The notes under the pieces are model-generated. The model saw only the letters and a program-made list of their open reading frames with translations, made no database searches and was not told the origin of the DNA. Below are positions 1 to 61,575 of a stretch of DNA of 61,575 nucleotides, in pieces. Both the position numbers and the translations under genes were made by a program. How positions within the stretch are numbered: position 1 is the first letter of the stretch; every line of letters starts with the position of its first letter. The DNA is from a virus: IMG/VR virus record IMGVR_UViG_3300000358_000010, one strand, 5' to 3'.

Positions 1-23
1 GGAAGCCCCATTACATTGAAGTA
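1..23. repeat. Terminal 23-bp direct repeat, left copy (GGAAGCCCCATTACATTGAAGTA). Either the att core (attL) or the DTR of a circularly assembled phage genome.
   Basis: 23/23 identity with 61553..61575. Everything between the two copies is phage. Confidence 0.9.
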
Positions 24-234
24 GCTAACAATACAATATACATACTTAATTATTAAGCAATTAACATCACGAAATAATATTCAATAAAACATTTGTAAAA
101 CAAATAACTATTTTAAAGCAAACCAAGTACTTCTCCTATTTTCTTTTGCGAATATATTGCATTACTGTTAAAAATCAAAATAATTAATAGACTACATAGA
201 TACGGTGGATATTATGATGATGAGAGGGTAATAG

Positions 235-259
235 TAAGGCAGCTTATTGGGCTGCCTTA
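235..259 (-). terminator. Hairpin downstream of the small ORF 328..552 (weak terminator candidate)
   Basis: 9-bp stem TAAGGCAGC/GCTGCCTTA with a 7-nt loop. No clear U-tract follows. Confidence 0.3.
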
Positions 260-327
260 TAAGTAATTCAAGGAATACCTGAAAGCAAAACCAAGAAAAA
301 AATTAGCTTTCTATAATTCAATTTCTA

Positions 328-552
328 CTAAAAATGGATTCTATTAGGAAATCCTGGAACAACAGCAGCAGGTAGCACAACTACATATGAATTTGTTGAC
401 TCTAAATCATAAAGAGTTGCGTTTCCAGCAGCTGCTCCAGTCAATGCTGTTGCCCCTGCAGCAGTACCCATATCAACCGTAATTGGTGGGGTCATAGTTA
501 CAACATGTCCAAAATAGGAACCACCACCGGCTATTCTAATTTCACATCTCAT
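328..552 (-). CDS. Hypothetical small Gly/Ala-rich protein (74 aa)
   Basis: ORF track. A TAtcTTTG -7-like box lies upstream on the minus strand (around 622..629). No recognisable domain and an unusual composition. Confidence 0.35.
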   Translation of the reverse strand: MRCEIRIAGGGSYFGHVVTMTPPITVDMGTAAGATALTGAAAGNATLYDLESTNSYVVVLPAAVVPGFPNRIHF

Positions 553-667
553 AATATAATAAAATTATTTCCTACTCTTTCAAAGGCTTTTCGGAACCCG
601 CCTATAAATTGACTATCTCTGTAAGCTTACGGTACAAAGATATAGGGATAGAGAACCGAGAACAATT

Positions 668-752
668 ATAAATTTTAGATAAGGGAATCAGTTTTTCGGG
701 TACAGAAAGATTTCTTTTGAATGAAAAAGCCCTGACTCTTTGGAGTCAGGGC
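668..752. repeat. Intergenic repeat, copy A (conserved segment plus terminator hairpin)
   Basis: Colinear similarity of roughly 75% by eye to 3084..3172, including the shared AATGAAAAAGCC and GGAATC blocks. Confidence 0.7.
724..752 (-). terminator. Intrinsic terminator after the lipoprotein operon
   Basis: 10-bp stem GCCCTGACTC/GAGTCAGGGC with a 4-nt loop, followed on the minus strand by TTTTT. Confidence 0.8.
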
Positions 753-792
753 AATTGATCTAAAACAATCCTATTACTAGTCTTAAAACACT

Positions 793-1362
793 CTAGTGCA
801 CCAATCCAAACCTAATCTTCAAAAGAACGCTTTTACATCCCTCCTGCGTGAGAAAGGTTTGGGTTGTCTCAAAATAGATGACTTGTTTATCCGTATTAAC
901 TATCATTTTTTCTGGATATTCAAATGTATACACACTGGCATCATCTGCTATTTTTTGCCCTTTATTCAATACATAACTGCTTGGAGTATCTGATTTAATA
1001 TCTACATAATACTGAATTGATACATTAACATAGTCGATTTTCATCCCTTCACTATAATGACAAGGTAACTCTTCAAGCAATTTTTGCTGATTGATTAAAG
1101 GCTCCGGCCATAAAAGATCAACAGAAGGATATTTATTGCCATAGAGAAATAAAGCACATGTGTTTAATGAACCGATCTCCTTTTTTAGATCAGTATGTTT
1201 AACCCCATCGAAATTAATATCGACAGGTTCGTTAGCTTCTATCTCCATCAATGTATACTTACCCCAAGTAATAGGCCTATCTTCAATCTCCTTTTTGTTG
1301 CAAGAAAAGAAAGCAAACACAGAAAACAGTAGCAGTACTTTTAATATATTTATCATAATCAA
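793..1362 (-). CDS. Lipoprotein (189 aa), function unknown
   Basis: Signal peptide plus lipobox (LLLFSVFAFFSC-NKKEIED). Overlaps the upstream gene by 4 nt (ATGA), consistent with an operon. Confidence 0.75.
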   Translation of the reverse strand: MIMINILKVLLLFSVFAFFSCNKKEIEDRPITWGKYTLMEIEANEPVDINFDGVKHTDLKKEIGSLNTCALFLYGNKYPSVDLLWPEPLINQQKLLEELPCHYSEGMKIDYVNVSIQYYVDIKSDTPSSYVLNKGQKIADDASVYTFEYPEKMIVNTDKQVIYFETTQTFLTQEGCKSVLLKIRFGLVH

Positions 1363-2921
1363 TAGATTTTCTTAGGAATTAAAGTCATTTCTACCATTGG
1401 ATTTTTAGCACTATAATAATTCTCGATATCCCTCGATGAACGATTATTTTTAAGTATCGGATCATAAAAATTAACCTCGAGTGTTCCCAAATGGTCAGAA
1501 CCCTTATTCATAACTTTTGTAAACGTATTCTCTTTTACTTTCTTGGCAGAACCTCCAAAGTTTAATCCAACTTTCTTTCCTATACCGACATTAAGTCCGA
1601 CATTACCAGCAAATTCTGTTGAAACTTTCTCCTGCGTAGTAAATACTTCCTGTTCATCAACTTCATATATATCAAACTTCCACGAAACAGAATTACTTTC
1701 TAAATCCCATCCAATTAAATCTATATCAGGATTATAACTATACGGTACTGATCCCGTGACTTTAAAGACCCACATATCTAAAATACGGTCTTTAACACTC
1801 GGTCTTGGCATAGGAATACCATCCCATGTAAGATGAAATAATTTCCATGGCTCTACTGAGAAATATTTTGTAATAACACTGCCAAGTCCAGAAGTATTTC
1901 CAATCAAAACGTCTATTTTAAATTCAAACCTACCTTCTCCCCAAAATGACCTATCTTTAGGAGAGGACTTCTCAAATCTTCTACTCCAATGTAGATCTTG
2001 ATAAAATTTAGGATCATTTGTTTGATCCGCAATCTTATACAATGCCTGTGTACTAAAATGCAAACATGCGATATTTTCTATTATATTTCTTTTTATTTCT
2101 CCTTCAGTGTTATTCCTATTTAATCCATAATAAATATTATCCCGCTGCCATAACCCATCATTTACCCCCATTTCTTTATAAGCTAAACGGATATGCTCTG
2201 TGGAGTAATTGTATTTCCATAACATAGCCTTTTCATCCTCTGAAGCCCTTGTAACCGCAACCTCACGCTTATTGATTCCGTCAAAAGCGCTATCAACAAA
2301 AGAGTAATCTCCATTTATTATATTAGGATTATTGCTTCTTGTAGTATTTGTTGTTTTAACAATACGCTCATTATTCTTTAGTACTAAGACAGGAAATCCA
2401 GGCACTAAATCAGATTCTAATTTAAAATGAAGATCGCCCCCAAAATAGAAAGAAATAGAATCATTCTCTACTAAGTTAGTACAAACATAAGGAGAATCAC
2501 CGAAAGAATTCCAATTTTCAGCATTAAACCCAGAGGGAAGCTCCGGAATATATATGGTCAATAGAGGTAATCTTTCTTCTACAGCGTCTAAACTATTATT
2601 AAAATCATAATCTTTAAGAACTTCTTTAAATGTTTTATCAGCTGTAACCTTTTTATTCTTAACTAACGGATAAAAAACGTCATAGTCATTATCTGTCATT
2701 TTTAAAGCTTCTTCTTTAATAAAGGCTCTGAGATCACTGTTATTAGAAACAGCTTTAGATAAAATCTTAGAAAAAGTATCAAAATCACTGAGAACAGATC
2801 CAGATTGAGGATGAATGTTGGTACTTTCTATTCCATCCCAAACGTCATCATTTGTACAAGAATAAATTAGAGTAAGAAACAGCAATCCATAGAATAAATT
2901 AGTTTTCATAATTAATGTCAT
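1359..2921 (-). CDS. Large lipoprotein (about 516-520 aa), function unknown
   Basis: MKTNLFYGLLFLTLIYSC-TNDD lipobox with acidic residues after the Cys. The alternative start at 2909 (MKTN) is more likely than 2921. Confidence 0.8.
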   Translation of the reverse strand: MTLIMKTNLFYGLLFLTLIYSCTNDDVWDGIESTNIHPQSGSVLSDFDTFSKILSKAVSNNSDLRAFIKEEALKMTDNDYDVFYPLVKNKKVTADKTFKEVLKDYDFNNSLDAVEERLPLLTIYIPELPSGFNAENWNSFGDSPYVCTNLVENDSISFYFGGDLHFKLESDLVPGFPVLVLKNNERIVKTTNTTRSNNPNIINGDYSFVDSAFDGINKREVAVTRASEDEKAMLWKYNYSTEHIRLAYKEMGVNDGLWQRDNIYYGLNRNNTEGEIKRNIIENIACLHFSTQALYKIADQTNDPKFYQDLHWSRRFEKSSPKDRSFWGEGRFEFKIDVLIGNTSGLGSVITKYFSVEPWKLFHLTWDGIPMPRPSVKDRILDMWVFKVTGSVPYSYNPDIDLIGWDLESNSVSWKFDIYEVDEQEVFTTQEKVSTEFAGNVGLNVGIGKKVGLNFGGSAKKVKENTFTKVMNKGSDHLGTLEVNFYDPILKNNRSSRDIENYYSAKNPMVEMTLIPKKIY

Positions 2922-3083
2922 TTAAAGGTTATTATACAAAAGAAAACAAGGTTAAATAAATTAATGTTTTCTGCATTACAATACATTAACAAATTGCAAA
3001 TACAAAGACCATAAAATCAAATTTTAAGCATACTCCCCTCATTTATATTAAAGTCTATAAATATAAAAGAATCAGGAGCGATC

Positions 3084-3172
3084 ATAAATTTGCGAGATAA
3101 TGGAATCGACCTTTCACGGATACAAGAAGACTTCTGTTAAATGAAAAAGCCTCGACTCCCAAGAATCGAGGC
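3084..3172. repeat. Intergenic repeat, copy B (conserved segment plus terminator hairpin)
   Basis: See copy A (668..752). Same order of blocks and same position relative to a terminator. Confidence 0.7.
3144..3172 (-). terminator. Intrinsic terminator after the ATPase-TIR gene
   Basis: 7-bp stem GCCTCGA/TCGAGGC followed by TTTTT on the minus strand. Confidence 0.7.
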
Positions 3173-3285
3173 CAGCAACTTAATGATAAGATGCTTCTAC
3201 AGTGCAAGAAAAATATATCTTTCCGATATGGGATAAAAACAGCCTAAACTAGAAAGATAAAACATTAGCAAACAAGAAGAATATG

Positions 3286-4779
3286 TTAATCTATTTTCAG
3301 CATTCGCTTGTCATTCAATTTCTCGTAAAGTAACTTAGCAAATAATTCTAATTGTTCATTCATGTCTTTTTGATGGTCATACATTAAATTACCTATTGAG
3401 AATAATGGATCAAATTGTGTCGGTTCACAACCTTTGAACAAGATAGGGATAACAGCATGTTCTCCAAATCGTTCCTTAAATCTATCTGATTCAAAATTTG
3501 TCCAAAGTTTTTTAGGATAGTTCTTATCGACCAAAACTATTATATAATCTGCATCTGATTTATATATAGGCTCAAAATACTCGCTTAAATCTTCTCCTAA
3601 AATTCGATGCTGCTCATTATAATCATAAAAAACACTACAAGAGTACTTAAATTCCAATATATCGACTAATTTAGCCGCAATAGTCCGTACTTCTCCAGCA
3701 AAAGAGATTGCGAAATCATAGTTTTTTACAAAATCAACATTACTAAAACCTATTTTACTTGCAAATGTATCCCAGTTAATGTTTTGTAAATAGAAAATAA
3801 ACTTAGGATCCTCCACTGTTAAGGTTTTTGAATTATCATCATAATGAATAACAGATTGTATGTTATCATTAGAGCTAATCAATTTTACCAGATAGCCTTT
3901 TTCTACTACTTGAGAAATACTAGCCTTATGAGTTGGATGGGATAAATAAACATCACTCATTCGGATAGACCATTCTTGGGAATCAGAAAGCCACTTTAAA
4001 AGATGAAAATATGGTGCTCTTCCTCCACTGCGTAATCTGGTTCCAACAGCAAAATCTTTTGCTTTATCATCAAAAACCCGACTTAAATCTTTCATCAAGC
4101 CTTGAATTACATAATTAATATCAACATTAAGAGTTTTTAAAGAGTCCAGAGAGTTTAAAACCCCTTCTTGTATACATAATTCTTTGCAAATCATTTGTGC
4201 TATATGAAAGCTTCCATTAGCTTTCTTTACAATTTGTTGTTTACAAGAAATATCTACATTTAAGACTTTTTCTCCCTTAGATATTAAGTCCATTATCTTA
4301 TTTTCTGGATTTACCTCAAATTTAACGGTAGTTACTCGATTATTTAAATCTGGAGATATTTTTATTAAACTATCTCCTGCCCTGTTAATGCCGATCAGAA
4401 CCAACTTCATATCATCCCTTTCTTCATCAGCAATAACCTTCATTAAACTCGCTAATTTCTCTTTAGTTTCATTGGGCAATAAATGAAAATCATCTATGAT
4501 TGCTATATTATTGCAAGCATTATCATTTATAATATTATCAATTCGACTCCTATCGTTTAGTTTTCTTGCAGATAATAGTTCAACATTATCTTTATCAAAA
4601 TGCAACGACTCTAAAACTTTCAATACACATGTAGTTTTCCCAATTCCAGATGGACCTTCAACTATAAGGCATCTTCCTCTTGTTCTCAATGAAACAACAA
4701 TTTTTGAGTATTCATTGGGTTCAACAAATGTATATGTTGGTATCCCAGAATCTTTAAAAACTTCCTCTAAATTGACCAT
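3286..4779 (-). CDS. P-loop NTPase with a C-terminal TIR domain (497 aa); candidate defence effector
   Basis: Track ORF 3286..4914 trimmed to the internal ATG at 4779, because the upstream 45 codons read through an AT-rich promoter. Walker A is GPSGIGKTT and Walker B-like is IAIIDDFH. The C-terminal 130 aa or so fit the bacterial TIR pattern (YDFAISFAGE..VFYD..IIVLVD..WTNFE). Confidence 0.8.
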   Translation of the reverse strand: MVNLEEVFKDSGIPTYTFVEPNEYSKIVVSLRTRGRCLIVEGPSGIGKTTCVLKVLESLHFDKDNVELLSARKLNDRSRIDNIINDNACNNIAIIDDFHLLPNETKEKLASLMKVIADEERDDMKLVLIGINRAGDSLIKISPDLNNRVTTVKFEVNPENKIMDLISKGEKVLNVDISCKQQIVKKANGSFHIAQMICKELCIQEGVLNSLDSLKTLNVDINYVIQGLMKDLSRVFDDKAKDFAVGTRLRSGGRAPYFHLLKWLSDSQEWSIRMSDVYLSHPTHKASISQVVEKGYLVKLISSNDNIQSVIHYDDNSKTLTVEDPKFIFYLQNINWDTFASKIGFSNVDFVKNYDFAISFAGEVRTIAAKLVDILEFKYSCSVFYDYNEQHRILGEDLSEYFEPIYKSDADYIIVLVDKNYPKKLWTNFESDRFKERFGEHAVIPILFKGCEPTQFDPLFSIGNLMYDHQKDMNEQLELFAKLLYEKLNDKRMLKID

Positions 4780-4806
4780 AATCCAAAAATACAAATGGTA
4801 TATTAA

Positions 4807-4822
4807 TATATTTGCAAATATA
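4807..4822 (-). promoter_or_regulatory. Perfect 16-nt palindrome TATATTTGCAAATATA carrying a -7 box (TAnnTTTG) on both strands; probable ATPase-TIR promoter
   Basis: The minus-strand TATATTTG lies 36 nt upstream of the ATG at 4779. Confidence 0.6.
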
Positions 4823-4990
4823 AATAAATTATGATATATAACAAATAAATTTTTAATTAAAATTTTATCGTCAAGAATTAACAAAAAATAGCTTACTCCT
4901 TTTTTATACATCAATTGTCATGTAATTATCCTTTCACTAACATAGCCAATGCCGGACAATCCATTAAAGAAATATGGTTTTATTGTTTCT

Positions 4991-5455
4991 TCACCACTCA
5001 AACAAATTACAACTCACCCCAACCCCAATATAGAGACTTGCCTTATTCCCGGAAAAACCGTATCCAGCCTGCACACCCAGCCCGAACCGTTTCCGCTTTG
5101 CCCGTTCTCTGATAAATACAGTCCTCGTTTTACTGTACACCTCTATACTATCCAGCTTTGCCCGGTAGCCTGACACATAAGCCGTATAAAGGCTGTCTTT
5201 GTAGATTTTCTGCGTAATAGGCAAATACACTGTATCCCGGACTGTATCGCCCGGCACTGGGACGGGAACAACGAACGGGAACGAATCTACAACGCTTTCA
5301 TAAACCGGAACGGGTATTGTATCCCGAACCGTATCAATACGATTTGTAATGATCGTGTCTCTGACTACTTCACCCGGTGCGTGTTCCACCCTTGCCGGGC
5401 GAAACACGATAAACAGGATAAGAACAATTATGATAATGTAAGGCAAATATTTCAT
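4991..5455 (-). CDS. Membrane-anchored lysis-cassette protein (spanin-like) with repeated TVRDT motifs
   Basis: N-terminal TM segment (YIIIIVLILFIVF). Motifs VVRDTI, DTVRDTI and DTVRDTV. Overlaps the amidase stop by 4 nt. Assignment is by position in the lysis cassette. Confidence 0.6.
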   Translation of the reverse strand: MKYLPYIIIIVLILFIVFRPARVEHAPGEVVRDTIITNRIDTVRDTIPVPVYESVVDSFPFVVPVPVPGDTVRDTVYLPITQKIYKDSLYTAYVSGYRAKLDSIEVYSKTRTVFIRERAKRKRFGLGVQAGYGFSGNKASLYIGVGVSCNLFEW

Positions 5456-5946
5456 GGACGTATGATTACAGGTTTCATAAAATTAGAGAACTCCTTCCGC
5501 ACATCAAAGCATGGGCAAACCTTGATATACTCAAACGGTTCTACCTCACCGTCATCATTCAGGTCAGGCGATGTATCCCGGTGTCCGAGCACTTCGATGA
5601 TAGGATACTCTTTACAAAGCTTTGCAACCAGATTACGAAGTGAAACTTTCTGCCAGTCAGTCCGGGTATCAGCTGGTTTCCCGTTGGCATCCAGACCACC
5701 AATATAGCAGATGCCAATGCTATGTTTGTTATACGAAAAATCTGAGAACCCTTTCGTATTACAGTGTGCACCATCGATGCTTAACGGACGTCCATTCTCG
5801 ACAGTACCGTCAAGGTCTACTACAAAATTGTACCCGATCTGGTTAAAACCTCTCTGGTTATGTATCCGGTCAATGTCTTTTGCACGCAGATCCTGTCCGG
5901 CACGTGTGGCCGAACAGTGAATAATGATTGAATCAATTGTTTTCAT
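5452..5946 (-). CDS. N-acetylmuramoyl-L-alanine amidase (endolysin, T7-lysozyme/PGRP type)
   Basis: IIIHCSAT..., GAHC..., SIGICYIGG and GHRD motifs. Adjacent to the holin. Confidence 0.85.
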   Translation of the reverse strand: MKTIDSIIIHCSATRAGQDLRAKDIDRIHNQRGFNQIGYNFVVDLDGTVENGRPLSIDGAHCNTKGFSDFSYNKHSIGICYIGGLDANGKPADTRTDWQKVSLRNLVAKLCKEYPIIEVLGHRDTSPDLNDDGEVEPFEYIKVCPCFDVRKEFSNFMKPVIIRP

Positions 5947-6395
5947 TTCTGTACCTCCTTTATTTTATTGATTAACTCCAACGCATCTTTCTCAGATGCA
6001 CATTTGATGATATTAGCTATTACACTGGGAAGCTCCGCAGCATGACTGCGTTTCCGTCTGTTATGTTCTATCAAACTACGGAACTCGATATAAAGCACAC
6101 CGGCAGTGATCAGCAAAGTAATGTATGGCAAAACATACCATGCAAACATCAATCCCAGTGTATCAAACATCAATCCAAACAGCATCAAGCGCCAGTAGTC
6201 ACCGGCCTTGGCCACAGTCTTTCTAAGCCCCTTGCTCTGTATAGGCTCTTTCAGCGCCTTTGCAGTCTGAATACCATCCCACATGTCTATAAGCGTGGAC
6301 AAAAACATAAGTAACCAGCATAGAAGAGTCACACAAGCATGTCGGTAAAGATTTGAAAAGTCTAACGCAGACACAAAATTCAAAATTTCATTCAT
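5943..6395 (-). CDS. Holin (150 aa, multi-TM)
   Basis: Hydrophobic helices (VTLLCWLLMFLSTLI; LMLFGLMFDTLGLMFAWYVLPYITLLITAGVLYI) and a charged C-terminus. Overlaps the lysin start. Confidence 0.7.
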   Translation of the reverse strand: MNEILNFVSALDFSNLYRHACVTLLCWLLMFLSTLIDMWDGIQTAKALKEPIQSKGLRKTVAKAGDYWRLMLFGLMFDTLGLMFAWYVLPYITLLITAGVLYIEFRSLIEHNRRKRSHAAELPSVIANIIKCASEKDALELINKIKEVQK

Positions 6396-6423
6396 CTATC
6401 CATTTATTTATAATATTGTTATT

Positions 6424-9400
6424 TCATATTTCATACAGTTTAGTAGGCATGTATCCGTTATATTCGGATAACGGGAAAATAATGGAAGCATAACCGGATA
6501 TTACACTGGATTTATAATCGCTTACAGCTGTATCAGGAACATATATGGCGACTACATTACCTAATCCGGCATACTCCAAGGTCGTAGGTGGAGTCGTAGA
6601 TTTAAAAATGACCGTCACAGAATTGCATCCGTTAAACATACGCGATCCTATAATATCAAGATTCCCCTCAAACACAACGGTCCTTATCTTTTTGCAGTTA
6701 GCGTAAGACTGAGAACCGGACTTTATTATGTTTACGGGAACACATGAAGCCGCTATCGGGGTATTCTGAAACATTTCATACGAAGTGCTGTTAACATAAC
6801 CTTTCAGTTCACCGAAATCACACTCTTCCAACGACACACAGTTTGAGAAAGAAAGTAAATTAAAGATTGTTGTCATTGAATCTTCCCCATATTCGAAAGA
6901 GTTGCACTTGAACCTTTTCAGTTTCGAACAATCGGAAAACCCTTTATTCATCGTATAGTGCCTTTCGGGAGGTATGATAAAGTCTTTCATCGTAAACTCC
7001 TCAAGCTCGGAACAATTATAAAAAGGCATATAATCACTCCCTCCTCCGGAAGATAAGAATGTGCAGGAATCCGGAAGATTCACTTTCTTTATCTTAGTTC
7101 CCATAAATGCACGTTGGTAGATCTGTTTAAGATTAGGGGGAAAGACAGCTGTTTCCAAATTGGTATTCTCAAAAGCCCCATATCCGATCTCCGTACAATT
7201 ACTCAGACTCTCAAACCCGACCAAGGAAGTGATATTCTTATAATTTTCATTTTTATCACCTGACAGAAAGTATCTTGGTATCGATGTAATCAAGTCGGCT
7301 TCATCCCGGGTTATTCCACCGTCACCGTTGACATCCCATAGCTCAAAGACTCTTTGAGCGACTATCTTATCGGTAAAACGAATAAAATACTTACCGATCA
7401 CATTCAGCTCTAACCTTTTAAAAGTTCCCCTCAAAGCCTGAATCGAATCCTCGTACGCATTCGCATACACATTTAAAGTACCGTCCAGCACCGGGTATTC
7501 ATCCTCACCGGCCACACCTTCGCTGTCAAGACCTACATACGAGCCATCCGCCAAAGCGGCCAGCTTATCCAGCATGTCGGAAGTGTTATACGTTTCATCA
7601 AAACCGACAGCACGGACACGCTTCAACGAATGTCCGGCGCCTTGTCCCTGCTGTGCGTCCATGATCTGTGTCAGGAGCTTGATAGGCTGCATAAGCGGGC
7701 AGTCTGAAATGAAAAAGTCAGTGATTACGGCTGCGCATTCATCTATCAAGACACCACTGTTCTTCATTAACGGATAGTTCTTAAGAACGAGGTAACGGGA
7801 CAAGGCGTTAAACTCTACCAGCTCCAATCCGCCGCCTGCCGGAAGACGAAGCTGGGTGATGGAAGTCCCGTCGATGTACACCTCCTTCAGGTGGCTGCAG
7901 GCGGTAAGGTTCAGAGTGCCCGCCAGCGTGGATATGCGTGAGAGCACAAGCTTCTGCAAGCTGACACAGTTGGAAAGTGTAAGCGACGAAATGGAAATCA
8001 CAATGCCGGCAGTCTTATGCCCAAGCCGGATCTCGCGTAGCATCTTACCCTGTACGATCATGGAACCGGTGACGTTCTTGTCGTGCCAGTCCCCGATATC
8101 CTGCAGGTAGCTTGCCGCCTGAATGGCGTTCTGCTGGTCACCCGTACCTCCCAATTCGATTTCCATATGACAGACCTCACCGGCTTTCGTCCGGGAGCCA
8201 CGGATGATACTCGTACCGTTGGCAATGGCAGGGTACATATCCATGGCCGGGGTGATGTCATAACCGATCGAGTTCCCGGCGGCACGTACTACGATGGTAT
8301 CCGTTCCATTGGCACTGAACAGGCCGAAACTATACTTCGACATCATGTACAGTATCCTCTTTGTTATCCACCGCTGTTCGGCGAGATAGTGATCTCCCAG
8401 TGATTGCGTGATAGGATCGGTATCGTTCGTGTACCGCCCGTCATTGTAAGCTATCTTACCGTTTTCGTAGCAATACTTCGCATCTGCGTTATAGGCGTTC
8501 TGAGGGAAGTATTCCTGCGCTACATCAAAGTAATACTTCTGGTAGAAAGCGTACAGTTTCTGTAAGTCGTTACCGGACTTCAACCCGCCTAATGTCTGCA
8601 TGGCTGTCATGGAACTTCGCATAGAAGCAATTTTCTCGTCCGGGAAAGCCAGTTCCATCAGGTTAAAGAAGTTATTTGTCTCACCGTTCCAGATAGCCGC
8701 CCCTGTTTCGTCCTTGTCATGTACCTCGACGCTGTATGACTTATCAGGCAATCCGCGGTTGGTGGTGTCGAAACGGGTGTCGGCATCATCCACACGCCAA
8801 CGCCATCGGCTGGTATCCGTTCCGAAGCTGTAGGGATAGGTATTTTTGGCACGTTCATCGGTACCGGCATTGAACTCGACGTTGTTCATGAAGAACAGAC
8901 AATCATTGATTTCCCAGTATTGCGGAGCGTCATTTCTGAACTTAGCTATACGGGAATTGATAAACAGTTCATTCAACTGGTCTGCCGTAAATGCGGACAG
9001 GTTTCCGGTATCCATGTAACCGGCCAGTTGCGTTTTCAAGTTTATGGTACCGTTCCCGATATCGGAAGCTATGAACTGACCGACGGAAGACTCGTAATAG
9101 TAGACATTATATTGGTTCACATCCCCGGCTTTCGCTATCCAGAACTCGTAGGGTTCGTTCTTGTAGGCGGAGGCCTGTCCGTTCAGTTCGGTCAACGTAC
9201 CGATGAACGGCTTCAACCGTGGAGAGCACTGGTAGACGCAATTGTATGCCGGGATGAACTTGGATATATTCTCCACTTCGCCTTCACCCAAATCGAAACA
9301 GTTCTGCCCGTTGTACTGATACGCCTCTTCGTCTTCATTGTAGGCTATCAATCCCCGTGCCGGATTCCAGGGGACACGGAACAGGGTGAGCAGCGGTGAG

Positions 9401-12021
9401 TTGTCAGAACCTTCAATGCTCAACAGGTTAGGATAAGTATCCGTATCATACCCGAACGTATCGGCATCCCCCTTATCAGGACCGAATGTGTACAGTCCGC
9501 GGAAAACGTATAGCGTTTCACCTTCCTCGTTGATCTGTTTTTCAAAACATACAAAAGGAGCTTCCCAAACTGAGACACGCACTTTCCCGTCGGCTTGCAT
9601 GGCTTCGTTCAGGATGCCAACCTCACGGATAAGGTCGGTATAGGAATTGACCGCACCGATCTTGTGGGATTGCATGGATGAAGCGTAGTTTTTCTTCGCT
9701 GTGAATTTACGCCCGGCAGGAAGATGGGGTGTCATCGCCCACTTCGCCCCCGCTGCGGAAGTTGTACCGTCCGCATAAGTGATGACAGACAGCTTCTTGT
9801 CGAGCTGGTAACGGGTATTCCAGATCCAGTATTTCATGGATGACGTACCTTGCCCCTTGGCCGTAACGTTATCGATAGATACGTTCCATTCAGGGTGCTC
9901 GTACCAGAACACCTCCAGCGTGCCTAACCGCTGAGTCTGGTCGGACATGGATGGGATGGTGTTGTCATACACCATCACATTCATCTGGTCTACGGTGTTG
10001 GCAAAGTCGATTTCCGAACCGTTGGAGTCAAGGATGTCATTGTAGGCTTTGGCAATCGCCTTGTCGGCACGCTCCACCAGCCAGTTGATGTAGTTTGTAA
10101 GTACACCGGCAGAGGTCAGACCGCTGTCATAGATGCGGATACCGTATACGTCAACGTCAGCATAGTCCGAGCCGATGGTTATCTTCCCGTCCTGCGCGAA
10201 GTAATCGTTGTTCTCATACGTGAACTCCCGGTTCTTAACGCCATTTACGTACAAGACGCACAGGTTGAAATCCTGATTCCCGTAAGCGTCCGGAATGATT
10301 GTCAATGTGAGCTTGGTACGCTTCTCCTCAAAAGTATGCAAACTCTGTACTTCATCATTGCGCTGCACTTGCGAGTGCATGATGATTTCGTCCGCATAGA
10401 TATTCAGGCCAATGAAATTGTCGCCGTTCGGAACGGACATGGTGATAAGCGGCTCCGTGTAATCAGTGACATTTGAAATCAAATAGTCAACCTCTATTGT
10501 CTTGCCTTTACGGGCCGCCTCCTTTTCAAATGGTTTGTAATCCACCGTCAGCAAACCGCCCGCCATGATACGAAGAACCTTGTTCCCGGCGCTGTCCGCT
10601 GTCCAGGCGTCATTGCCCCAGTTCATGCCTTCCCATGTACAGGGGATAGCCGTACCGGTTATCTCGTTGATGACAGACTGCCGGTTGGACTGCCCGTTGC
10701 TTCGGGTCTTCGGATTCATATAGAAAACCGCGCCGGCAACGGCGGAATAACCCAACGAGTTGTCCACCGGGATGACTACCGTACTGCCCAGTTGGCTGTA
10801 ACCGTCCATCACGGACACCTCGATGTTAAACTCCGAATTGTCCAAAGTGTCGATTTCCATCGGAATGGAAAAAGTATGTTTGGCCTGCGTGGTGATATTG
10901 TCCTCTTCAGAGGAATAGACCTGTTTCCCGTCCTTGTTCACGATAAATTCGGCGGAGGTATTTACTTCGTCACCGTTGTAGATCGAGTAATCAAACAGGG
11001 CATTCTCAGTCCAGTTTATAGCCTTTGACGTAACGTTGTTGATAGCGATCATCTTGACCGCTTCACCGGTAACGGCACACATCACATTAAAGGATACGAC
11101 TTTGGTGGCCACGCTGCCATCAACGGTACTGACGTATGCGGTAACCTTGAAAACACCCGTCTTTCCCGGATGGGGGATGGAATAGTTATAAGCGGTTTCG
11201 GTATAGATCTGCGTACCGATATTCTCATCGTATTCCCGGTTATATCCACTGCCAACCACTGTAACGTGCAATACTTTGTTCACATTACCACCTATGTAGA
11301 GCGGAAGCGTGATTGCCCCGGTATAGGCGGTCCACCACCGGAAGTTGCTCGCGTTGATGGTCAACGAGGTCAGGGTCACGGTCCATACGAACGCAGGGGT
11401 GGTGACTTCGGTCACTTCCCCGGTCACTTTTACCATGACGTTATTAGCACCCGATGTGAGGAACTCGGTCACGTCAACGGAAGTAATGCCGGTGGAGTTG
11501 ATATACATTTGCTTCTGAACAACATAGTCCCCATCACCGTTCTTTACCGAGACCTCACATAAGCCACGCTCGTTGGTGTTTTCGTAAGGGTCCAGTGCCG
11601 AGTAACGTTCCTGCGAGATGAACTTAAACTTGATGATACAAGGTTCGTCCTTGCTGGCCGAAAGTGTCTTCCCGTCCATTTCATTGACTACACGCACATA
11701 CCGCTGTACCACAGTCTGACCGCCGGTCGTGTTAAGCGGACCGCTGACTATCTCACCGTTCGCTTCCGCATACAGGTCAGTGCCCTCGATGAAGATATTG
11801 TCGATCTTCCGCGCCATTTCATCTTCCATTAGGCTCAAGGAACGCTTGAATGCGGTGATGGACTGGTTGATCTTCGTAATCTTATCCTGCAAGTCCTCCT
11901 CCCCGGAGGTGTCGTTCACCCCGTCCACCAGTTCGTTGATCTTGCTGACCATCTGGTTCAGTTCCGCCGCCTTCAACGAGTCGCCGGACGTGAACGTCTT
12001 TCTTAATTCGCTTACTGCCAT
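6424..12021 (-). CDS. Giant tail fibre / receptor-binding protein (1865 aa) with C-terminal BspA-type leucine-rich repeats
   Basis: N-terminal coiled coil and a beta-rich middle. CotH-like stretch (GQGTSSMKYW...SSMQSHK, tentative). Ca-loop WDVNGDGGITRDEA. C-terminal LRR_5-like repeats (SLSNCTEIGYGAFENTNLETAVFP...). Confidence 0.8.
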   Translation of the reverse strand: MAVSELRKTFTSGDSLKAAELNQMVSKINELVDGVNDTSGEEDLQDKITKINQSITAFKRSLSLMEDEMARKIDNIFIEGTDLYAEANGEIVSGPLNTTGGQTVVQRYVRVVNEMDGKTLSASKDEPCIIKFKFISQERYSALDPYENTNERGLCEVSVKNGDGDYVVQKQMYINSTGITSVDVTEFLTSGANNVMVKVTGEVTEVTTPAFVWTVTLTSLTINASNFRWWTAYTGAITLPLYIGGNVNKVLHVTVVGSGYNREYDENIGTQIYTETAYNYSIPHPGKTGVFKVTAYVSTVDGSVATKVVSFNVMCAVTGEAVKMIAINNVTSKAINWTENALFDYSIYNGDEVNTSAEFIVNKDGKQVYSSEEDNITTQAKHTFSIPMEIDTLDNSEFNIEVSVMDGYSQLGSTVVIPVDNSLGYSAVAGAVFYMNPKTRSNGQSNRQSVINEITGTAIPCTWEGMNWGNDAWTADSAGNKVLRIMAGGLLTVDYKPFEKEAARKGKTIEVDYLISNVTDYTEPLITMSVPNGDNFIGLNIYADEIIMHSQVQRNDEVQSLHTFEEKRTKLTLTIIPDAYGNQDFNLCVLYVNGVKNREFTYENNDYFAQDGKITIGSDYADVDVYGIRIYDSGLTSAGVLTNYINWLVERADKAIAKAYNDILDSNGSEIDFANTVDQMNVMVYDNTIPSMSDQTQRLGTLEVFWYEHPEWNVSIDNVTAKGQGTSSMKYWIWNTRYQLDKKLSVITYADGTTSAAGAKWAMTPHLPAGRKFTAKKNYASSMQSHKIGAVNSYTDLIREVGILNEAMQADGKVRVSVWEAPFVCFEKQINEEGETLYVFRGLYTFGPDKGDADTFGYDTDTYPNLLSIEGSDNSPLLTLFRVPWNPARGLIAYNEDEEAYQYNGQNCFDLGEGEVENISKFIPAYNCVYQCSPRLKPFIGTLTELNGQASAYKNEPYEFWIAKAGDVNQYNVYYYESSVGQFIASDIGNGTINLKTQLAGYMDTGNLSAFTADQLNELFINSRIAKFRNDAPQYWEINDCLFFMNNVEFNAGTDERAKNTYPYSFGTDTSRWRWRVDDADTRFDTTNRGLPDKSYSVEVHDKDETGAAIWNGETNNFFNLMELAFPDEKIASMRSSMTAMQTLGGLKSGNDLQKLYAFYQKYYFDVAQEYFPQNAYNADAKYCYENGKIAYNDGRYTNDTDPITQSLGDHYLAEQRWITKRILYMMSKYSFGLFSANGTDTIVVRAAGNSIGYDITPAMDMYPAIANGTSIIRGSRTKAGEVCHMEIELGGTGDQQNAIQAASYLQDIGDWHDKNVTGSMIVQGKMLREIRLGHKTAGIVISISSLTLSNCVSLQKLVLSRISTLAGTLNLTACSHLKEVYIDGTSITQLRLPAGGGLELVEFNALSRYLVLKNYPLMKNSGVLIDECAAVITDFFISDCPLMQPIKLLTQIMDAQQGQGAGHSLKRVRAVGFDETYNTSDMLDKLAALADGSYVGLDSEGVAGEDEYPVLDGTLNVYANAYEDSIQALRGTFKRLELNVIGKYFIRFTDKIVAQRVFELWDVNGDGGITRDEADLITSIPRYFLSGDKNENYKNITSLVGFESLSNCTEIGYGAFENTNLETAVFPPNLKQIYQRAFMGTKIKKVNLPDSCTFLSSGGGSDYMPFYNCSELEEFTMKDFIIPPERHYTMNKGFSDCSKLKRFKCNSFEYGEDSMTTIFNLLSFSNCVSLEECDFGELKGYVNSTSYEMFQNTPIAASCVPVNIIKSGSQSYANCKKIRTVVFEGNLDIIGSRMFNGCNSVTVIFKSTTPPTTLEYAGLGNVVAIYVPDTAVSDYKSSVISGYASIIFPLSEYNGYMPTKLYEI

Positions 12022-55085: not shown

Positions 55086-55112
55086 AAAACTTATTGTTTA
55101 ATTAATGATTTG

Positions 55113-55194
55113 TGGATGGTAGAGGAGTCGAACCTCTCTCAATCATGCCAATTGGTTGCGCAACACGAAGCTCTAACCGATAAGCTAACCATCC
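55113..55194 (-). tRNA. tRNA-like gene with canonical acceptor, D and T arms but a 16-nt anticodon loop (non-canonical or pseudo-tRNA)
   Basis: Minus strand: GGATGGT-TA-GCTT/ATCGGTTA/GAGC-T-TCGTG[TTGCGCAACCAATTGG]CATGA-TTGAG-AGAGG/TTCGACT/CCTCT-ACCATCC-A. No 5-bp stem with a 7-nt loop can be drawn. Confidence 0.5.
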
Positions 55195-55549: not shown

Positions 55550-55920
55550 AATTATGTATATTAGTTAGTGCCTGTACCCCCATTGAAGAAAAGCTGTTAT
55601 GCTTGGTAGAACTCATATTTCAAGTTCAGTACAGGCTATATGTTCGAAAACAGTACGGACGCCCAACCCGTTTTCTTACTGCTCTGGGACGATTCTTTGC
55701 GGTGTTTTCTATTAATTGTTATACATTGTACAGCTCGCAAGCTCCAACTTGCTTATGTACGTTCGTTATCTTTGGTCAACCTTGTACAGCTTATAGTATT
55801 ACACCGTAAAGGTTTTCACAATCTTGTCAAAGAGCTTAATCAATAGCGCCCTACCCGATTCTCGCTATCGGTTGCCGTTCAATCCGTCAGTAGGGCTGTC
55901 GTGCGTTGCATAACCGTGTA

Positions 55921-56620: not shown

Positions 56621-56694
56621 ATATCGCTAAATATCGCAATAAAATATTGCTATATTGACAATATTTAACATTATGAATAAGATTAATATCGCAA
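56621..56694. promoter_or_regulatory. Operator candidates: three ATATCGC copies, including a 2x AATATCGCAA direct repeat
   Basis: ATATCGC at 56621, 56631 and 56686. AATATCGCAA at 56630..56639 and 56685..56694. The third site lies inside the repressor's 5' end. Confidence 0.5.
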
Positions 56695-57371
56695 GTTTAA
56701 GGAAGTCTCTGAGACTAAGGCAAAAGGATTTTGGTGAAAAAATTGGTATCAAACAAGCCTATTTGTCAGAAATAGAAAGTGGCAAAAAGCCTCTTACAGA
56801 GGAATTATATAATAATATTATAGAAGTATTTGGCATGGATAAAGTTTCTGAACACTTTATCAGCACGAATGATAGCGATATTATCGCAAATAAAAATACA
56901 AACGAAGCAGTACCTTTAAATCAGAACTTTATAATAAATGTACCTCTCGTGAACCAATACGCACAAGCCGGATATATATGCGGCTTCCAAGATGCTGCAT
57001 ACATAGCTACACTACCTACTATACCATTCATTATTGACCATGAAGCAAAAGGAAACTATGTAGCCTTTGAGGTCAGAGGAGACAGTATGAATGATGGAAC
57101 AGAAGAAAGCTATCTTGAAGGAGATAGGCTTCTTTGTAGAGAAATAGCTCCCTATCTATGGGCAGAGTCTAAATTGCATATTCGGAAATGGGATTTCGTT
57201 ATTGTACATGAAGGCGGAATTTTGGTAAAACGAATAATAGATCATAATGTAGAAAATCATACTATCACAATACACTCTTTGAATGACATGTATCCTGACA
57301 GAGTTATTGATTTGGCAGAAGTTAAACAAATCTTCAATGTGATAGAATTGCAAAGGCCAAGAAGGAGGTAG
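56673..57371 (+). CDS. cI/LexA-like repressor (XRE HTH plus S24 peptidase, 232 aa)
   Basis: Trimmed to the ATG at 56673. HTH is LRQKDFGEKIGIKQAYLSEIESGKK. S24 motifs are RGDSMNDG and ILVKRII. Confidence 0.85.
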   Translation: MNKINIASLRKSLRLRQKDFGEKIGIKQAYLSEIESGKKPLTEELYNNIIEVFGMDKVSEHFISTNDSDIIANKNTNEAVPLNQNFIINVPLVNQYAQAGYICGFQDAAYIATLPTIPFIIDHEAKGNYVAFEVRGDSMNDGTEESYLEGDRLLCREIAPYLWAESKLHIRKWDFVIVHEGGILVKRIIDHNVENHTITIHSLNDMYPDRVIDLAEVKQIFNVIELQRPRRR

Positions 57372-57455: not shown

Positions 57456-58496
57456 ATGGAAGATATAACTTCAGAACTCAATGAGCAAAAAAGAAAAGTA
57501 GATTTTAATTCTTACGATATGAGTGTAAAGGAATTAATATCTATGGTAAATGATGGACTTATTGACATAGCCCCTGAATACCAAAGACAATTCAGATGGG
57601 ACACATTTAGGCAATCAACTCTTATTGAGTCTATTTTCTTGGGTATTCCAGTGCCTTCTTTGTTCATGGCAACCAATCCAGACGGCACATGGGAAGTGAT
57701 AGATGGGGTACAAAGACTTAGTTCCATCATTAATTTCGCTGCAGAAAAAGACTCTTCAGCAAGAAAGAAAATTAAAAAAGAAACTCCATTACAACTTTGC
57801 GAACTGAAGAAAATGAAGTCTTTTAATGGAAAGGATTTCAAAAGCTTACCGCGTTCATTACAAATTGACTTTTTGCTAAAACCGTTAAAAATAACAACAT
57901 TAAGTGACAAAAGTGACAAATCCATAAGATTTGACCTATTTGAAAGATTAAACACCGGAGGCATAAAATTATCAGACCAAGAGATTAGAAGCTGTATTTT
58001 CAGAGGTCAATTTAATGATTTTTTAAAAAGACTATCCTTAAATAACAATTTCAGAAAGGTTGTAAAACTTTCTAAAGGTGCAGAAAATGATGGGACAAGA
58101 GAAGAACTGATTCTTCGTTTCTTTTCATGTTTGAATAATAAAAGTTCCTTTGATCATAGTGTTGTTGACTTTCTGAACGATTACATGAATGATTCTTGCA
58201 GGAATTTTAATTATGAAATAAATGAGCGTATATTTAATAATGTGTTTACTCAATTATCCGGTTTAAGCCATGGCATAGTAAAAAGCAGAACAAGCACCAT
58301 AACTTCAGTTGTTCTTTTTGAAGCTGTTTCTGTTGGAGCCGCAGAGGCTTTGAAAGAAAAAGACTCCATTAACATTTCAGCCTTTTACGATTGGGTAACA
58401 GATAAAGACTTTAATAAATTAATCACTGGAGCTACAAACTCAAAACCTAAACTCCTTGCAAGAATAAAATTTTGTAGAAGCAAATTTTTAGAATAA
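57456..58496 (+). CDS. DUF262 (ParB/GmrSD N-terminal-like) protein (346 aa)
   Basis: DIAPEYQRQFRWDTFRQSTLIESIFLGIPVPSLF...VIDGVQRLSSI fits the DUF262 pattern. No DUF1524/HNH tail is present. Confidence 0.8.
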   Translation: MEDITSELNEQKRKVDFNSYDMSVKELISMVNDGLIDIAPEYQRQFRWDTFRQSTLIESIFLGIPVPSLFMATNPDGTWEVIDGVQRLSSIINFAAEKDSSARKKIKKETPLQLCELKKMKSFNGKDFKSLPRSLQIDFLLKPLKITTLSDKSDKSIRFDLFERLNTGGIKLSDQEIRSCIFRGQFNDFLKRLSLNNNFRKVVKLSKGAENDGTREELILRFFSCLNNKSSFDHSVVDFLNDYMNDSCRNFNYEINERIFNNVFTQLSGLSHGIVKSRTSTITSVVLFEAVSVGAAEALKEKDSINISAFYDWVTDKDFNKLITGATNSKPKLLARIKFCRSKFLE

Positions 58497-59143
58497 TGTT
58501 CGAAGATGTAAATGCTGAAGTCAATAGACGGTTAAAGGAGGTGAAATCATTTTATTCCCTAATAAAAGCCAACCCTGAAACTGAAGTTTTCGACATGAAG
58601 GTGTTCAAAGGTACATGTTTTGTAATACTGTATGGCGTTTTAGAATACACAATAACTGCTTCAGTTCAAAAATGCTTATCTATTATTAATCAAAAAAAGT
58701 ATGATATAATACATCTTAAACCGACATTGTATTCAATGGTTTTCAATGATGAATGTAATGCTATGATGGAAGCAAGAGACAAAAAATGGATGAAAAGACA
58801 TGATTTATTTTCCCAAATAAATTGCAGTCAAGTTTGTCATATAGAAGATAACTTATTTCCTGCAGGTTCAGGGAATATAAAATACCAACAAATAGAATCT
58901 ATATGGAAAATTTTTGGTATATCCGCTCCTGCAGTAAATGAAGACAAAATGAAAGGGCGTTTATCGACATTGGCAGATAATAGAAACGCAATAGCCCATG
59001 GACGGGAATTGGCTTCAGTTATAGGAGGAAGATATACTATAAGCGAAATAGAAAATATATATAATGACATTAGTACATACTGCAGCTATATAACTTCAGC
59101 ATTTGAAGAATACATTAATAATGAGGATTGTTTAATCCACTAA
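58496..59143 (+). CDS. HEPN-domain protein (MAE_28990/MAE_18760-like, 215 aa)
   Basis: Rx4H motif LADNRNAIAHGRE near the C-terminal third. All-helical. The start overlaps the DUF262 stop (TAATG). Confidence 0.7.
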   Translation: MFEDVNAEVNRRLKEVKSFYSLIKANPETEVFDMKVFKGTCFVILYGVLEYTITASVQKCLSIINQKKYDIIHLKPTLYSMVFNDECNAMMEARDKKWMKRHDLFSQINCSQVCHIEDNLFPAGSGNIKYQQIESIWKIFGISAPAVNEDKMKGRLSTLADNRNAIAHGRELASVIGGRYTISEIENIYNDISTYCSYITSAFEEYINNEDCLIH

Positions 59144-61552: not shown

Positions 61553-61575
61553 GGAAGCCCCATTACATTGAAGTA
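61553..61575. repeat. Terminal 23-bp direct repeat, right copy (attR core or DTR)
   Basis: Identical to 1..23. The integrase start lies 173 bp inside it. Confidence 0.9.

Follow-up and report, generated by a model that had tools for sequence, protein, structure and literature searches.

A prophage-borne protein of Bacteroides fragilis joining an AAA+ ATPase to a C-terminal TIR domain, a candidate single-gene anti-phage system

Validated single-gene defence systems that combine a STAND NTPase with a TIR domain exist, such as TIR-NLR (Rst_TIR-NLR), in which the domains follow one another in the order TIR, STAND and TPR (PMC9122126). Beside such validated systems stands the PDC collection of 145 untested candidates embedded in restriction-modification (RM), BREX and DISARM loci (10.1101/2024.01.29.577857). 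Here we describe a gene of the IMG/VR virus record IMGVR_UViG_3300000358_000010, a stretch of 61,575 nucleotides that was analysed over its full length and is called the window below. The gene (3286..4779, minus strand) encodes a protein of 497 residues in which an AAA+ ATPase, its lid and a winged helix precede a C-terminal TIR domain, and no description of this architecture was found in the literature searched. We propose that it is probably a single-gene anti-phage cargo of a temperate B. fragilis phage, acting by superinfection exclusion or abortive infection, a reading that we hold with moderate confidence.

An ATPase half and a TIR half in one protein

The coding sequence was taken from the list of open reading frames (ORFs) and their translations; its stop codon lies at 3286-3288, and all features of the protein given below are on the minus strand. 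The reading frame extends over 3286..4914 if it is opened at an upstream TTG. The ATG at 4779 (MVNLEEVF...) is the start that matches the N-termini of 42 homologues in the family alignment, and the TTG start, which would give 542 residues, was ruled out because the homologues open at the MVNLEE position. For the same reason the gene calls of 541 or 542 residues are over-extended. B. fragilis has an identical protein, annotated as "TIR domain-containing protein" or as "AAA family ATPase". The initial annotation, made by a model from the letters of the DNA alone, had described a 497-residue protein with an ATPase followed by a TIR domain. Pfam, a profile search of the PDB and Foldseek on two AlphaFold models bear this out, and give the order AAA+ ATPase, lid, winged helix and TIR from N- to C-terminus. 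The full-length model has a predicted local distance difference test score (pLDDT) of 87.6 and a predicted template modelling score of 0.71.

The N-terminal 160 residues (4300..4779) form a conserved cap and an AAA+ alpha/beta domain, as delimited by Pfam, invariant residues, the alignment with RuvB and Foldseek; invariance was judged throughout in a family alignment of 43 sequences. The Walker A motif reads GPSGIGKTT (aa 42-50, with K48 at 4636-4638) and the Walker B motif IAIIDDFH (aa 92-99, with D96 and D97 at 4489-4494), and residues G42 to K48, T50, D96, D97 and H99 are invariant, as is the sensor-1 residue N132 that ends strand 4. Pfam assigns AAA_22 with 34.6 bits (cut-off 27) and AAA with 24 bits. 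In the alignment of the family profile with Thermotoga maritima RuvB, GPSGIGKT falls on GPPGLGKT, IIDDFH on FIDEIH, and GSFH192IA on GTPRIA. The invariant R148 of the DLNNR motif (4336-4338) aligns on the PLRSR motif of RuvB and is a candidate arginine finger, an assignment that is moderately secure, the E-value of the alignment being only 8e-4. The AAA+ lid (aa 161-245; 4045..4299) was placed by the RuvB alignment and is helical in the model. It carries the invariant GSFH192 (4204-4206) at the sensor-2 motif GTPR of RuvB: the sensor-2 arginine is absent, and its position is occupied by the invariant His192.

A winged-helix-like domain follows (aa 246-345; 3745..4044), recognised from the model, from the Foldseek alignments and from invariant columns, with GRAPY (253-257) and EDPK (323-326) unchanged across the family. 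In the AlphaFold model this region consists of helices and a beta-hairpin (311-322). What had been called a helical middle region is refined to an AAA+ lid and a winged helix. A Foldseek search with the full-length model retrieves ORC1/Cdc6 structures (7jgr, 1w5s, 1fnn, 2qby), RFC subunits and RuvB at E-values of 1e-8 to 1e-7, with Clp ATPases also among the best PDB matches, and the alignments to Cdc6/ORC extend over about 400 columns that comprise the AAA+ base, the lid and the winged helix. Other searches were less telling: NCBIfam gives only sub-threshold matches of RuvB, Hda and RFC type, BFVD returns generic clamp-loader and AAA+ matches for the full model and no viral model with an ATPase-TIR arrangement, and a PDB search with the ATPase half as a single sequence gives nothing informative. 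The AAA/ORC-like P-loop module with Walker A and B motifs that the initial annotation had proposed is thus confirmed by Pfam, the RuvB alignment and Foldseek. Taken together, motifs and predicted fold give the ATPase the look of a classical RuvB/ORC/RFC-type AAA+ protein more than that of a typical STAND of the Avs kind.

The C-terminal part (aa 346-497; 3289..3744) comprises a TIR domain and a C-terminal helix, and was delimited by Pfam, by profile matches in the PDB and by Foldseek on a model of this part alone. Compared with the PDB, the family profile finds BtTir (7uxr, 1e-8), AbTIR (8g83, 1.3e-7), BtpA (8e-4) and the TIR domain of plant RPS4 (1e-3). The TIR-only AlphaFold model (pLDDT 83.6) gives 23 Foldseek matches in the PDB at E <= 0.001, of which 22 are TIR or TIR-like SEFIR structures with template modelling (TM) scores of 0.5-0.65; BtpA, BtTir, RPS4, PdTIR, TIR-STING, AbTir and SPARTA are among the matches. 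A TIR fold was therefore found by profile and by structure search. The motif WTNFE430 aligns with WTEYE of BtTir and WTNYE of AbTIR, and W426 (3502-3504), F429 and the candidate catalytic glutamate E430 (3490-3492) are invariant in the 43 sequences, in line with the C-terminal TIR domain and catalytic glutamate first pointed out from the sequence. Sequence and model together indicate that this TIR domain most likely belongs to the NAD-cleaving kind. Its nearest relatives of solved structure, AbTIR, BtTir and BtpA, are bacterial TIR proteins that cleave NAD+ and make isomers of cyclic ADP-ribose (cADPR).

Conservation is even over all domains, with variation confined to aa 61-90, to the C-terminal helix and to aa 205-225, where the interior of the protein varies most; no hypervariable, sensor-like region appears along the family alignment. 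Neither the Pfam scan nor the model contains repeats or a large sensor domain, the protein ending with the TIR domain and one helix, and the lack of sensor repeats noted in the initial annotation is thereby upheld. These features bear on a first alternative, namely that the protein is a miniature Avs- or NLR-like receptor, in which a phage protein would bind the lid or winged helix and drive STAND-type oligomerisation and activation of the TIR domain. Its Walker B motif has the hhhhDD form that is common in STANDs, and Pfam reports nSTAND3 at 28.5 bits, barely over the cut-off of 27.2, a marginal match by which some STAND affinity may be suggested; nSTAND_NTPase5 falls under its own cut-off. 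The existence of TIR-NLR and other validated TIR-STAND systems encoded by one gene, and the sensing of conserved phage proteins by many Avs families, make such a receptor plausible in principle. However, the large sensor domain and the hypervariability of typical sensors are both missing, sequence and fold are nearest to RuvB, ORC and RFC with the arginine-finger-like R148, and none of the Avs, bNACHT, TIR-NLR, Thoeris or ThsB models of PADLOC-DB v2 is matched at E <= 1. We therefore regard a receptor of this kind as unlikely, while ranking it first among the alternatives.

A widespread family carried as a single gene

More than 1,400 proteins match the ATPase-TIR protein. At E < 1e-30 the matches amount to 242 clusters of a representative library of 1.84 billion proteins, and when each species was represented by a single genome, at least 251 loci were found, spread over more than 10 phyla and including one archaeon. 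Relatives are 43-67% identical over their full length, and come from Bacteroidota, Acidobacteriota, Pseudomonadota, Bacillota, Actinomycetota, Cyanobacteria, Planctomycetota and Verrucomicrobiota, as well as from a metagenome-assembled genome of Halobacteriota. The distribution is thus wide and patchy. The family is not rare; it is large, highly conserved and already generically annotated.

A relative is present on 22 IMG/VR viral contigs. Homologues 64-65% identical fill the same slot after the lysis genes as in the window in a further two groups of contigs from Bacteroidota phages. In one related Bacteroidota phage (contigs L006-L010, 5682-6588) an AbiH gene comes after the lysis genes and before the ATPase-TIR homologue, and genes for SRAP, a Y-family polymerase (IMS), an S24 peptidase and an integrase are next in order. 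Since AbiH and the homologue stand there together, the post-lysis slot acts as a small island for defence genes or other cargo. In P2-like phages a relative lies between the tail-completion genes R/S and the baseplate genes V/W/J/I, at the S-V junction, a known variable site of P2; the homologues in these prophages are 43-44% identical (5989-7515 in contig L027, also L025, L026, L031, L033, L040 and L111), and one such prophage resides in Erwinia tasmaniensis. Elsewhere, one relative is found in a mobilisable element beside Upx-like, Schlafen-helicase and DndD genes, and one is solitary in a chromosome.

A neighbourhood survey of 102 loci, one of the analyses proposed at the outset, found no partner gene common to them by neighbour clustering, Pfam or PADLOC. 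The 193 nearest-neighbour ORFs of these loci fall into 173 clusters, and because the neighbours are so heterogeneous the gene must be regarded as stand-alone. Their Pfam and PADLOC content is mixed and includes small numbers of type I RM, FRG, ThsB-TIR, PDC-S15 and mad5 genes. A partner gene was dismissed in the window as well, the two lipoprotein-like ORFs downstream being absent elsewhere and no neighbour family recurring.

This solitary character can be set against a Thoeris-like signal generator, in which the TIR domain would make cADPR or a related nucleotide and so activate an effector whose gene lies at another place in host or prophage. The nearest solved TIR structures (AbTIR, BtTir and BtpA) are those with cADPR-isomer chemistry, and ThsB_TIR or TIR_2 neighbours occur in 2 of 125 cases. 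On the other hand, no ThsA-like, SLOG, Macro, caspase or other partner is conserved in the 102 loci, the gene travels as a single unit among phages and phyla, and the ThsB model of PADLOC is not matched, so that we judge a separate effector to be improbable.

Larger proteins elsewhere contain the module formed by aa 4-345 in fusion with Metallophos, DUF4062 and NACHT, an N6 methylase, a receiver domain or a TIR placed at the N-terminus. Such swapping of effectors on a common module is typical of conflict systems. A cellular role unrelated to immunity, for instance that of an AAA+ protein of DNA transactions with a TIR-like domain serving as a non-catalytic interaction module, would suit the resemblance of the fold to RuvB, ORC and clamp loaders. 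It is hard to reconcile with the invariance of the TIR glutamate and its surrounding motif, with a distribution that is sporadic, spread by horizontal transfer and tied to phages and mobile elements, not to the core genome, and with the lack of a conserved operon partner, and we consider it very improbable, the least probable of the alternatives.

The gene as cargo of a Bacteroides prophage

The window is one integrated 61.5-kb prophage of B. fragilis, inserted at the 3' end of maf in the host. A 23-bp direct repeat, GGAAGCCCCATTACATTGAAGTA, forms attL at 1..23 and is repeated exactly as attR at 61553..61575, in the 3' end of maf; the left host flank holds MBOAT, PP-binding and AMP-binding genes. 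Moreover, the empty site (attB) was recovered, a 51-nt probe of left flank, att and right flank matching six gut metagenome contigs (L121-L126). As the att repeats bound the window and the empty site is known, the ATPase-TIR gene is true prophage cargo, and its location in host DNA outside the prophage is excluded. When positions 1-9000 of the window were compared by megablast with 50,697 phage records of INPHARED, no match was obtained, and tblastn against the INPHARED records returned one weak match to the TIR part only.

The position beside a lysis module that had been read from the sequence is confirmed. Directly upstream of the gene lies a lysis cassette (4991..6395, minus strand), supported by a PHROG amidase match (2e-55) and by Pfam Amidase_2 and DUF6808, and consisting of a holin-like gene (5943-6395), an amidase gene (5452-5946) and a DUF6808 gene (4991-5455). 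The complete order at this end of the prophage is tail fibre, holin-like, amidase, DUF6808, ATPase-TIR and two lipoprotein-like ORFs, a layout that is the same in all 24 contigs read with an identical DUF6808 protein. The cargo arm has a G+C content of about 30%, against 40-51% in the adjoining 12 kb of tail and lysis genes.

Signals for separate expression were sought around the gene. Past its stop codon, by 113 nt, lies an intrinsic-terminator-like structure (3144..3173, minus strand) detected by a terminator scan and by RNA folding, made of a hairpin of 11 pairs (3148..3173) and a T-run that reaches 3144. The hairpin folds at -17.9 kcal/mol with a z-score of -4.76, and none of 200 shuffled sequences was as stable, in agreement with the terminator that had been proposed at 3144..3172. 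Upstream, a pattern search found a match to a Bacteroides-type promoter, TTTG-N19-TAtaTTTG (4815..4845, minus strand), with the -33 element TTTG at 4842-4845, a 19-nt spacer and the -7 element TAtaTTTG at 4815-4822. The pattern TTTG-N19-TAnnTTTG, the Bacteroides promoter consensus of the literature, occurs 7 times in the window against 1.78 expected, and 0 of 100 shuffles reached 7; these promoter calls are matches to a motif and are not evidence of transcription. The -7 element overlaps a perfect 16-bp palindrome, TATATTTGCAAATATA, at 4807..4822, the sole perfect palindrome of that length in the 61.5 kb. Of the palindromic promoter initially suggested at this place, the palindrome is thus real and does overlap a promoter match. 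It is not conserved in the family, being absent upstream of four homologues, and with no second copy in the prophage a role as an operator is not supported.

The place of the gene raises the alternative that the protein serves the phage itself, either by stabilising the prophage as a toxin or addiction module, or as a late enzyme that alters host nicotinamide adenine dinucleotide (NAD+) or brings the cell to a halt at about the time of lysis. The gene stands on the same strand as the lysis cassette and directly after it, and the terminator scan found none between the two, so that late read-through from the lysis genes is possible; a place beside lysis or tail genes is also kept in several phages. 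Yet many relatives sit in chromosomes without phage genes nearby, and cargo is typically found at post-lysis and S-V positions. The gene also differs in GC content and has a promoter match of its own, and effector swapping in the family is of the kind seen in conflict systems. A service to the phage is accordingly given a low probability.

Further features of the prophage were recorded. Between the ATPase-TIR gene and attL (793-2921, minus strand) are the two ORFs of 520 and 189 residues, with lipoprotein-type signal peptides (...LIYSC and ...FFSC) and without a Pfam or PHROG family; present in all contigs with this prophage and absent from other homologue loci, they are further AT-rich cargo and may encode surface lipoproteins. 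Closer to attL, the Rfam cis-regulatory motif DUF805b (569-604, minus strand; 44.2 bits, above its gathering score) lies just upstream of a 74-residue ORF (328-552). On the other side of the lysis genes, a 1865-residue tail-fibre-like protein (6424-12021, minus strand), in which an LRR_5 domain is called, matches PHROG 24896 over its first ~1070 residues.

The opposite end of the prophage holds the integrase, a cI-like repressor and a second defence-like cassette. This cassette (57456-59143, plus strand), between the repressor (56655-57371) and the integrase, encodes a GmrSD_N/DUF262 protein (346 residues, 2.8e-30) and, directly after it, a protein of the HEPN kind (RiboL-PSP / MAE_28990, 215 residues), and the pair is retained in related prophages (L002-L004). 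In one of these, the metagenome contig L003 (1-12355), which uses the same maf att site, the arm with repressor, GmrSD, HEPN and integrase is joined to inverted tape-measure and tail genes and the TIR arm is lacking; it looks like a rearranged or deleted relative. In the early region, the Rfam small RNA DUF2693-FD (55848-55896, minus strand) scores 77.9 bits, above its gathering score. ARAGORN calls a tRNA-like element at 55112-55194 (minus strand) whose anticodon, unusually, has four bases (tgcg) and to which it assigns no amino acid, and Rfam gives no tRNA there at the gathering threshold.

Proposed function and relation to known systems

A patchy spread at high identity, a mobile context, a single gene, exchangeable effectors and a link to the candidate defence family PDC-S59, described below, make defence the most likely reading of the sequence data. 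How the protein would act can be sketched from its parts. The N-terminal 345 residues would form an ATP-dependent switch made of the RuvB/ORC/RFC-type AAA+ domain, the lid and the winged helix. In the uninfected lysogen the protein would stay inactive, as a monomer or in a low-order form, and an infection cue would cause ATP-dependent oligomerisation through R148 acting as an arginine finger between subunits. Both the winged helix and the evenness of conservation point to a conserved cue, for instance a replication intermediate or phage DNA, and away from a phage protein that varies. Oligomerisation would then place the C-terminal TIR domains in the head-to-tail contacts that TIR enzymes need, around the active site of E430, and the assembled domains would cleave NAD+, depleting it and possibly producing cADPR isomers too. 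The infected cell would thereby be halted before the incoming phage could end its cycle. We infer this sequence of events, from trigger to oligomerisation, NADase activity and defence, from the domains and residues that the family conserves.

Several observations weigh against the proposed role as anti-phage cargo. The Pfam match to TIR_2 (aa 356-456) has 29.9 bits, just over the cut-off of 28, and the nSTAND3 match likewise exceeds its cut-off by little. With a histidine at sensor 2, ATP hydrolysis may be slow or absent, while the idea that DNA is sensed has fold analogy and the conservation pattern as its only grounds. Neighbours in cellular genomes are mostly housekeeping genes or genes of no assigned function, with a defence-related minority, and an enrichment in defence islands is not statistically demonstrated from the neighbours sampled. 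The missing terminator after the lysis genes, with the read-through it would permit, points in the same direction.

A bolder form of the defence proposal, which we offer tentatively and consider rather doubtful, is that the family represents a distinct class of immune ATPase, in which an AAA+ protein with a winged helix, akin to replication initiators and RuvB and unlike a STAND whose repeat sensor binds proteins, polymerises directly on a conserved nucleic-acid feature of infection and arrays the TIR domains into an NADase filament or ring. The feature would be phage DNA ends, replication forks or single-stranded DNA, and the invariant sensor-2 histidine would tune a slow, switch-like ATPase. 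Polymerisation of this kind would explain why no variable sensor is present, why identity exceeds 43% from Bacteroidota to archaea, and why effectors such as TIR and metallophosphatase are freely exchanged.

If the anti-phage role is true, the gene would add to NTPase-TIR immunity, already known in other forms, a compact protein of 497 residues, encoded by one gene and free of sensor repeats, whose switch is a classical AAA+ and not a STAND. This is not conceptually surprising; what is unusual is the switch module, in a widespread family. Prophages of B. fragilis in the human gut often carry a member of the family, and unrelated temperate phages repeatedly have one as cargo, so that a defence function would bear on phage-phage competition in the gut, on the design of Bacteroides phage therapy and on how assembly powered by ATP can gate TIR enzymes. 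Being small and highly conserved, the protein is tractable for structural and mechanistic work.

As regards catalogued families, the statement that the protein matches no named system agrees with PADLOC-DB v2, with PHROG and with the literature. The PADLOC-DB v2 scan yields only the candidates PDC-S59 and PDC-S66, the latter a weak match to the TIR part. The PDC-S59 match (6e-20) is partial, aligning aa 74-332 with profile positions 138-401 of 428. PDC-S59 and the ATPase-TIR gene are both single-gene and share the module of ATPase, lid and winged helix, but the first 137 positions of the profile are unmatched and the profile stops before any TIR domain; PDC-S59 is thus probably a TIR-less sister family and not the same protein, judging from the alignment. 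PHROG 6841 matches across the full architecture, with aa 90-479 aligned on positions 166-468 of 470 (E 2e-52, 179.6 bits). The catalogue gives it neither function nor name, and the strength of the match implies that the family is already catalogued, generically, among phage proteins.

With Thoeris the protein has in common a proposed TIR-based defence, and differs in having no ThsA-type partner, no match to the ThsB hidden Markov model and a TIR domain fused to an ATPase. The TIR fold and the WxxxE motif are shared with AbTir, BtTir, BtpA/TcpB, TIR-STING, TIR-SAVED and SPARTA, which become active once their TIR domains are forced into ordered assemblies, as is proposed here. The assembly is driven by a coiled coil, STING, SAVED or Argonaute in those proteins, and would be driven by the AAA+ ATPase in ours. 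RuvB, ORC/Cdc6 and RFC share the AAA+ base, lid and winged helix, with alignable Walker A and B motifs, sensor 1 and arginine finger. Unlike them, the ATPase-TIR protein has an invariant sensor-2 histidine and a C-terminal TIR domain, and occurs in a mobile or defence-like context, not one of replication or recombination.

A further parallel is TIR-NLR together with the TIR-bearing Avs and bNACHT proteins, which likewise are single genes on phage-related mobile elements that couple an NTPase switch to a TIR effector, and for which the same logic of oligomerisation, TIR activation and abortive infection is expected. Those proteins are much larger, with an N-terminal TIR, a STAND domain and a C-terminal TPR sensor, and Avs5 combines nSTAND3 with SIR2 and repeat sensors. 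The ATPase-TIR protein, in contrast, reaches from ATPase through winged helix to C-terminal TIR within 497 residues and without repeats, and its AAA+ domain aligns with the RuvB/ORC/RFC type, including the arginine finger.

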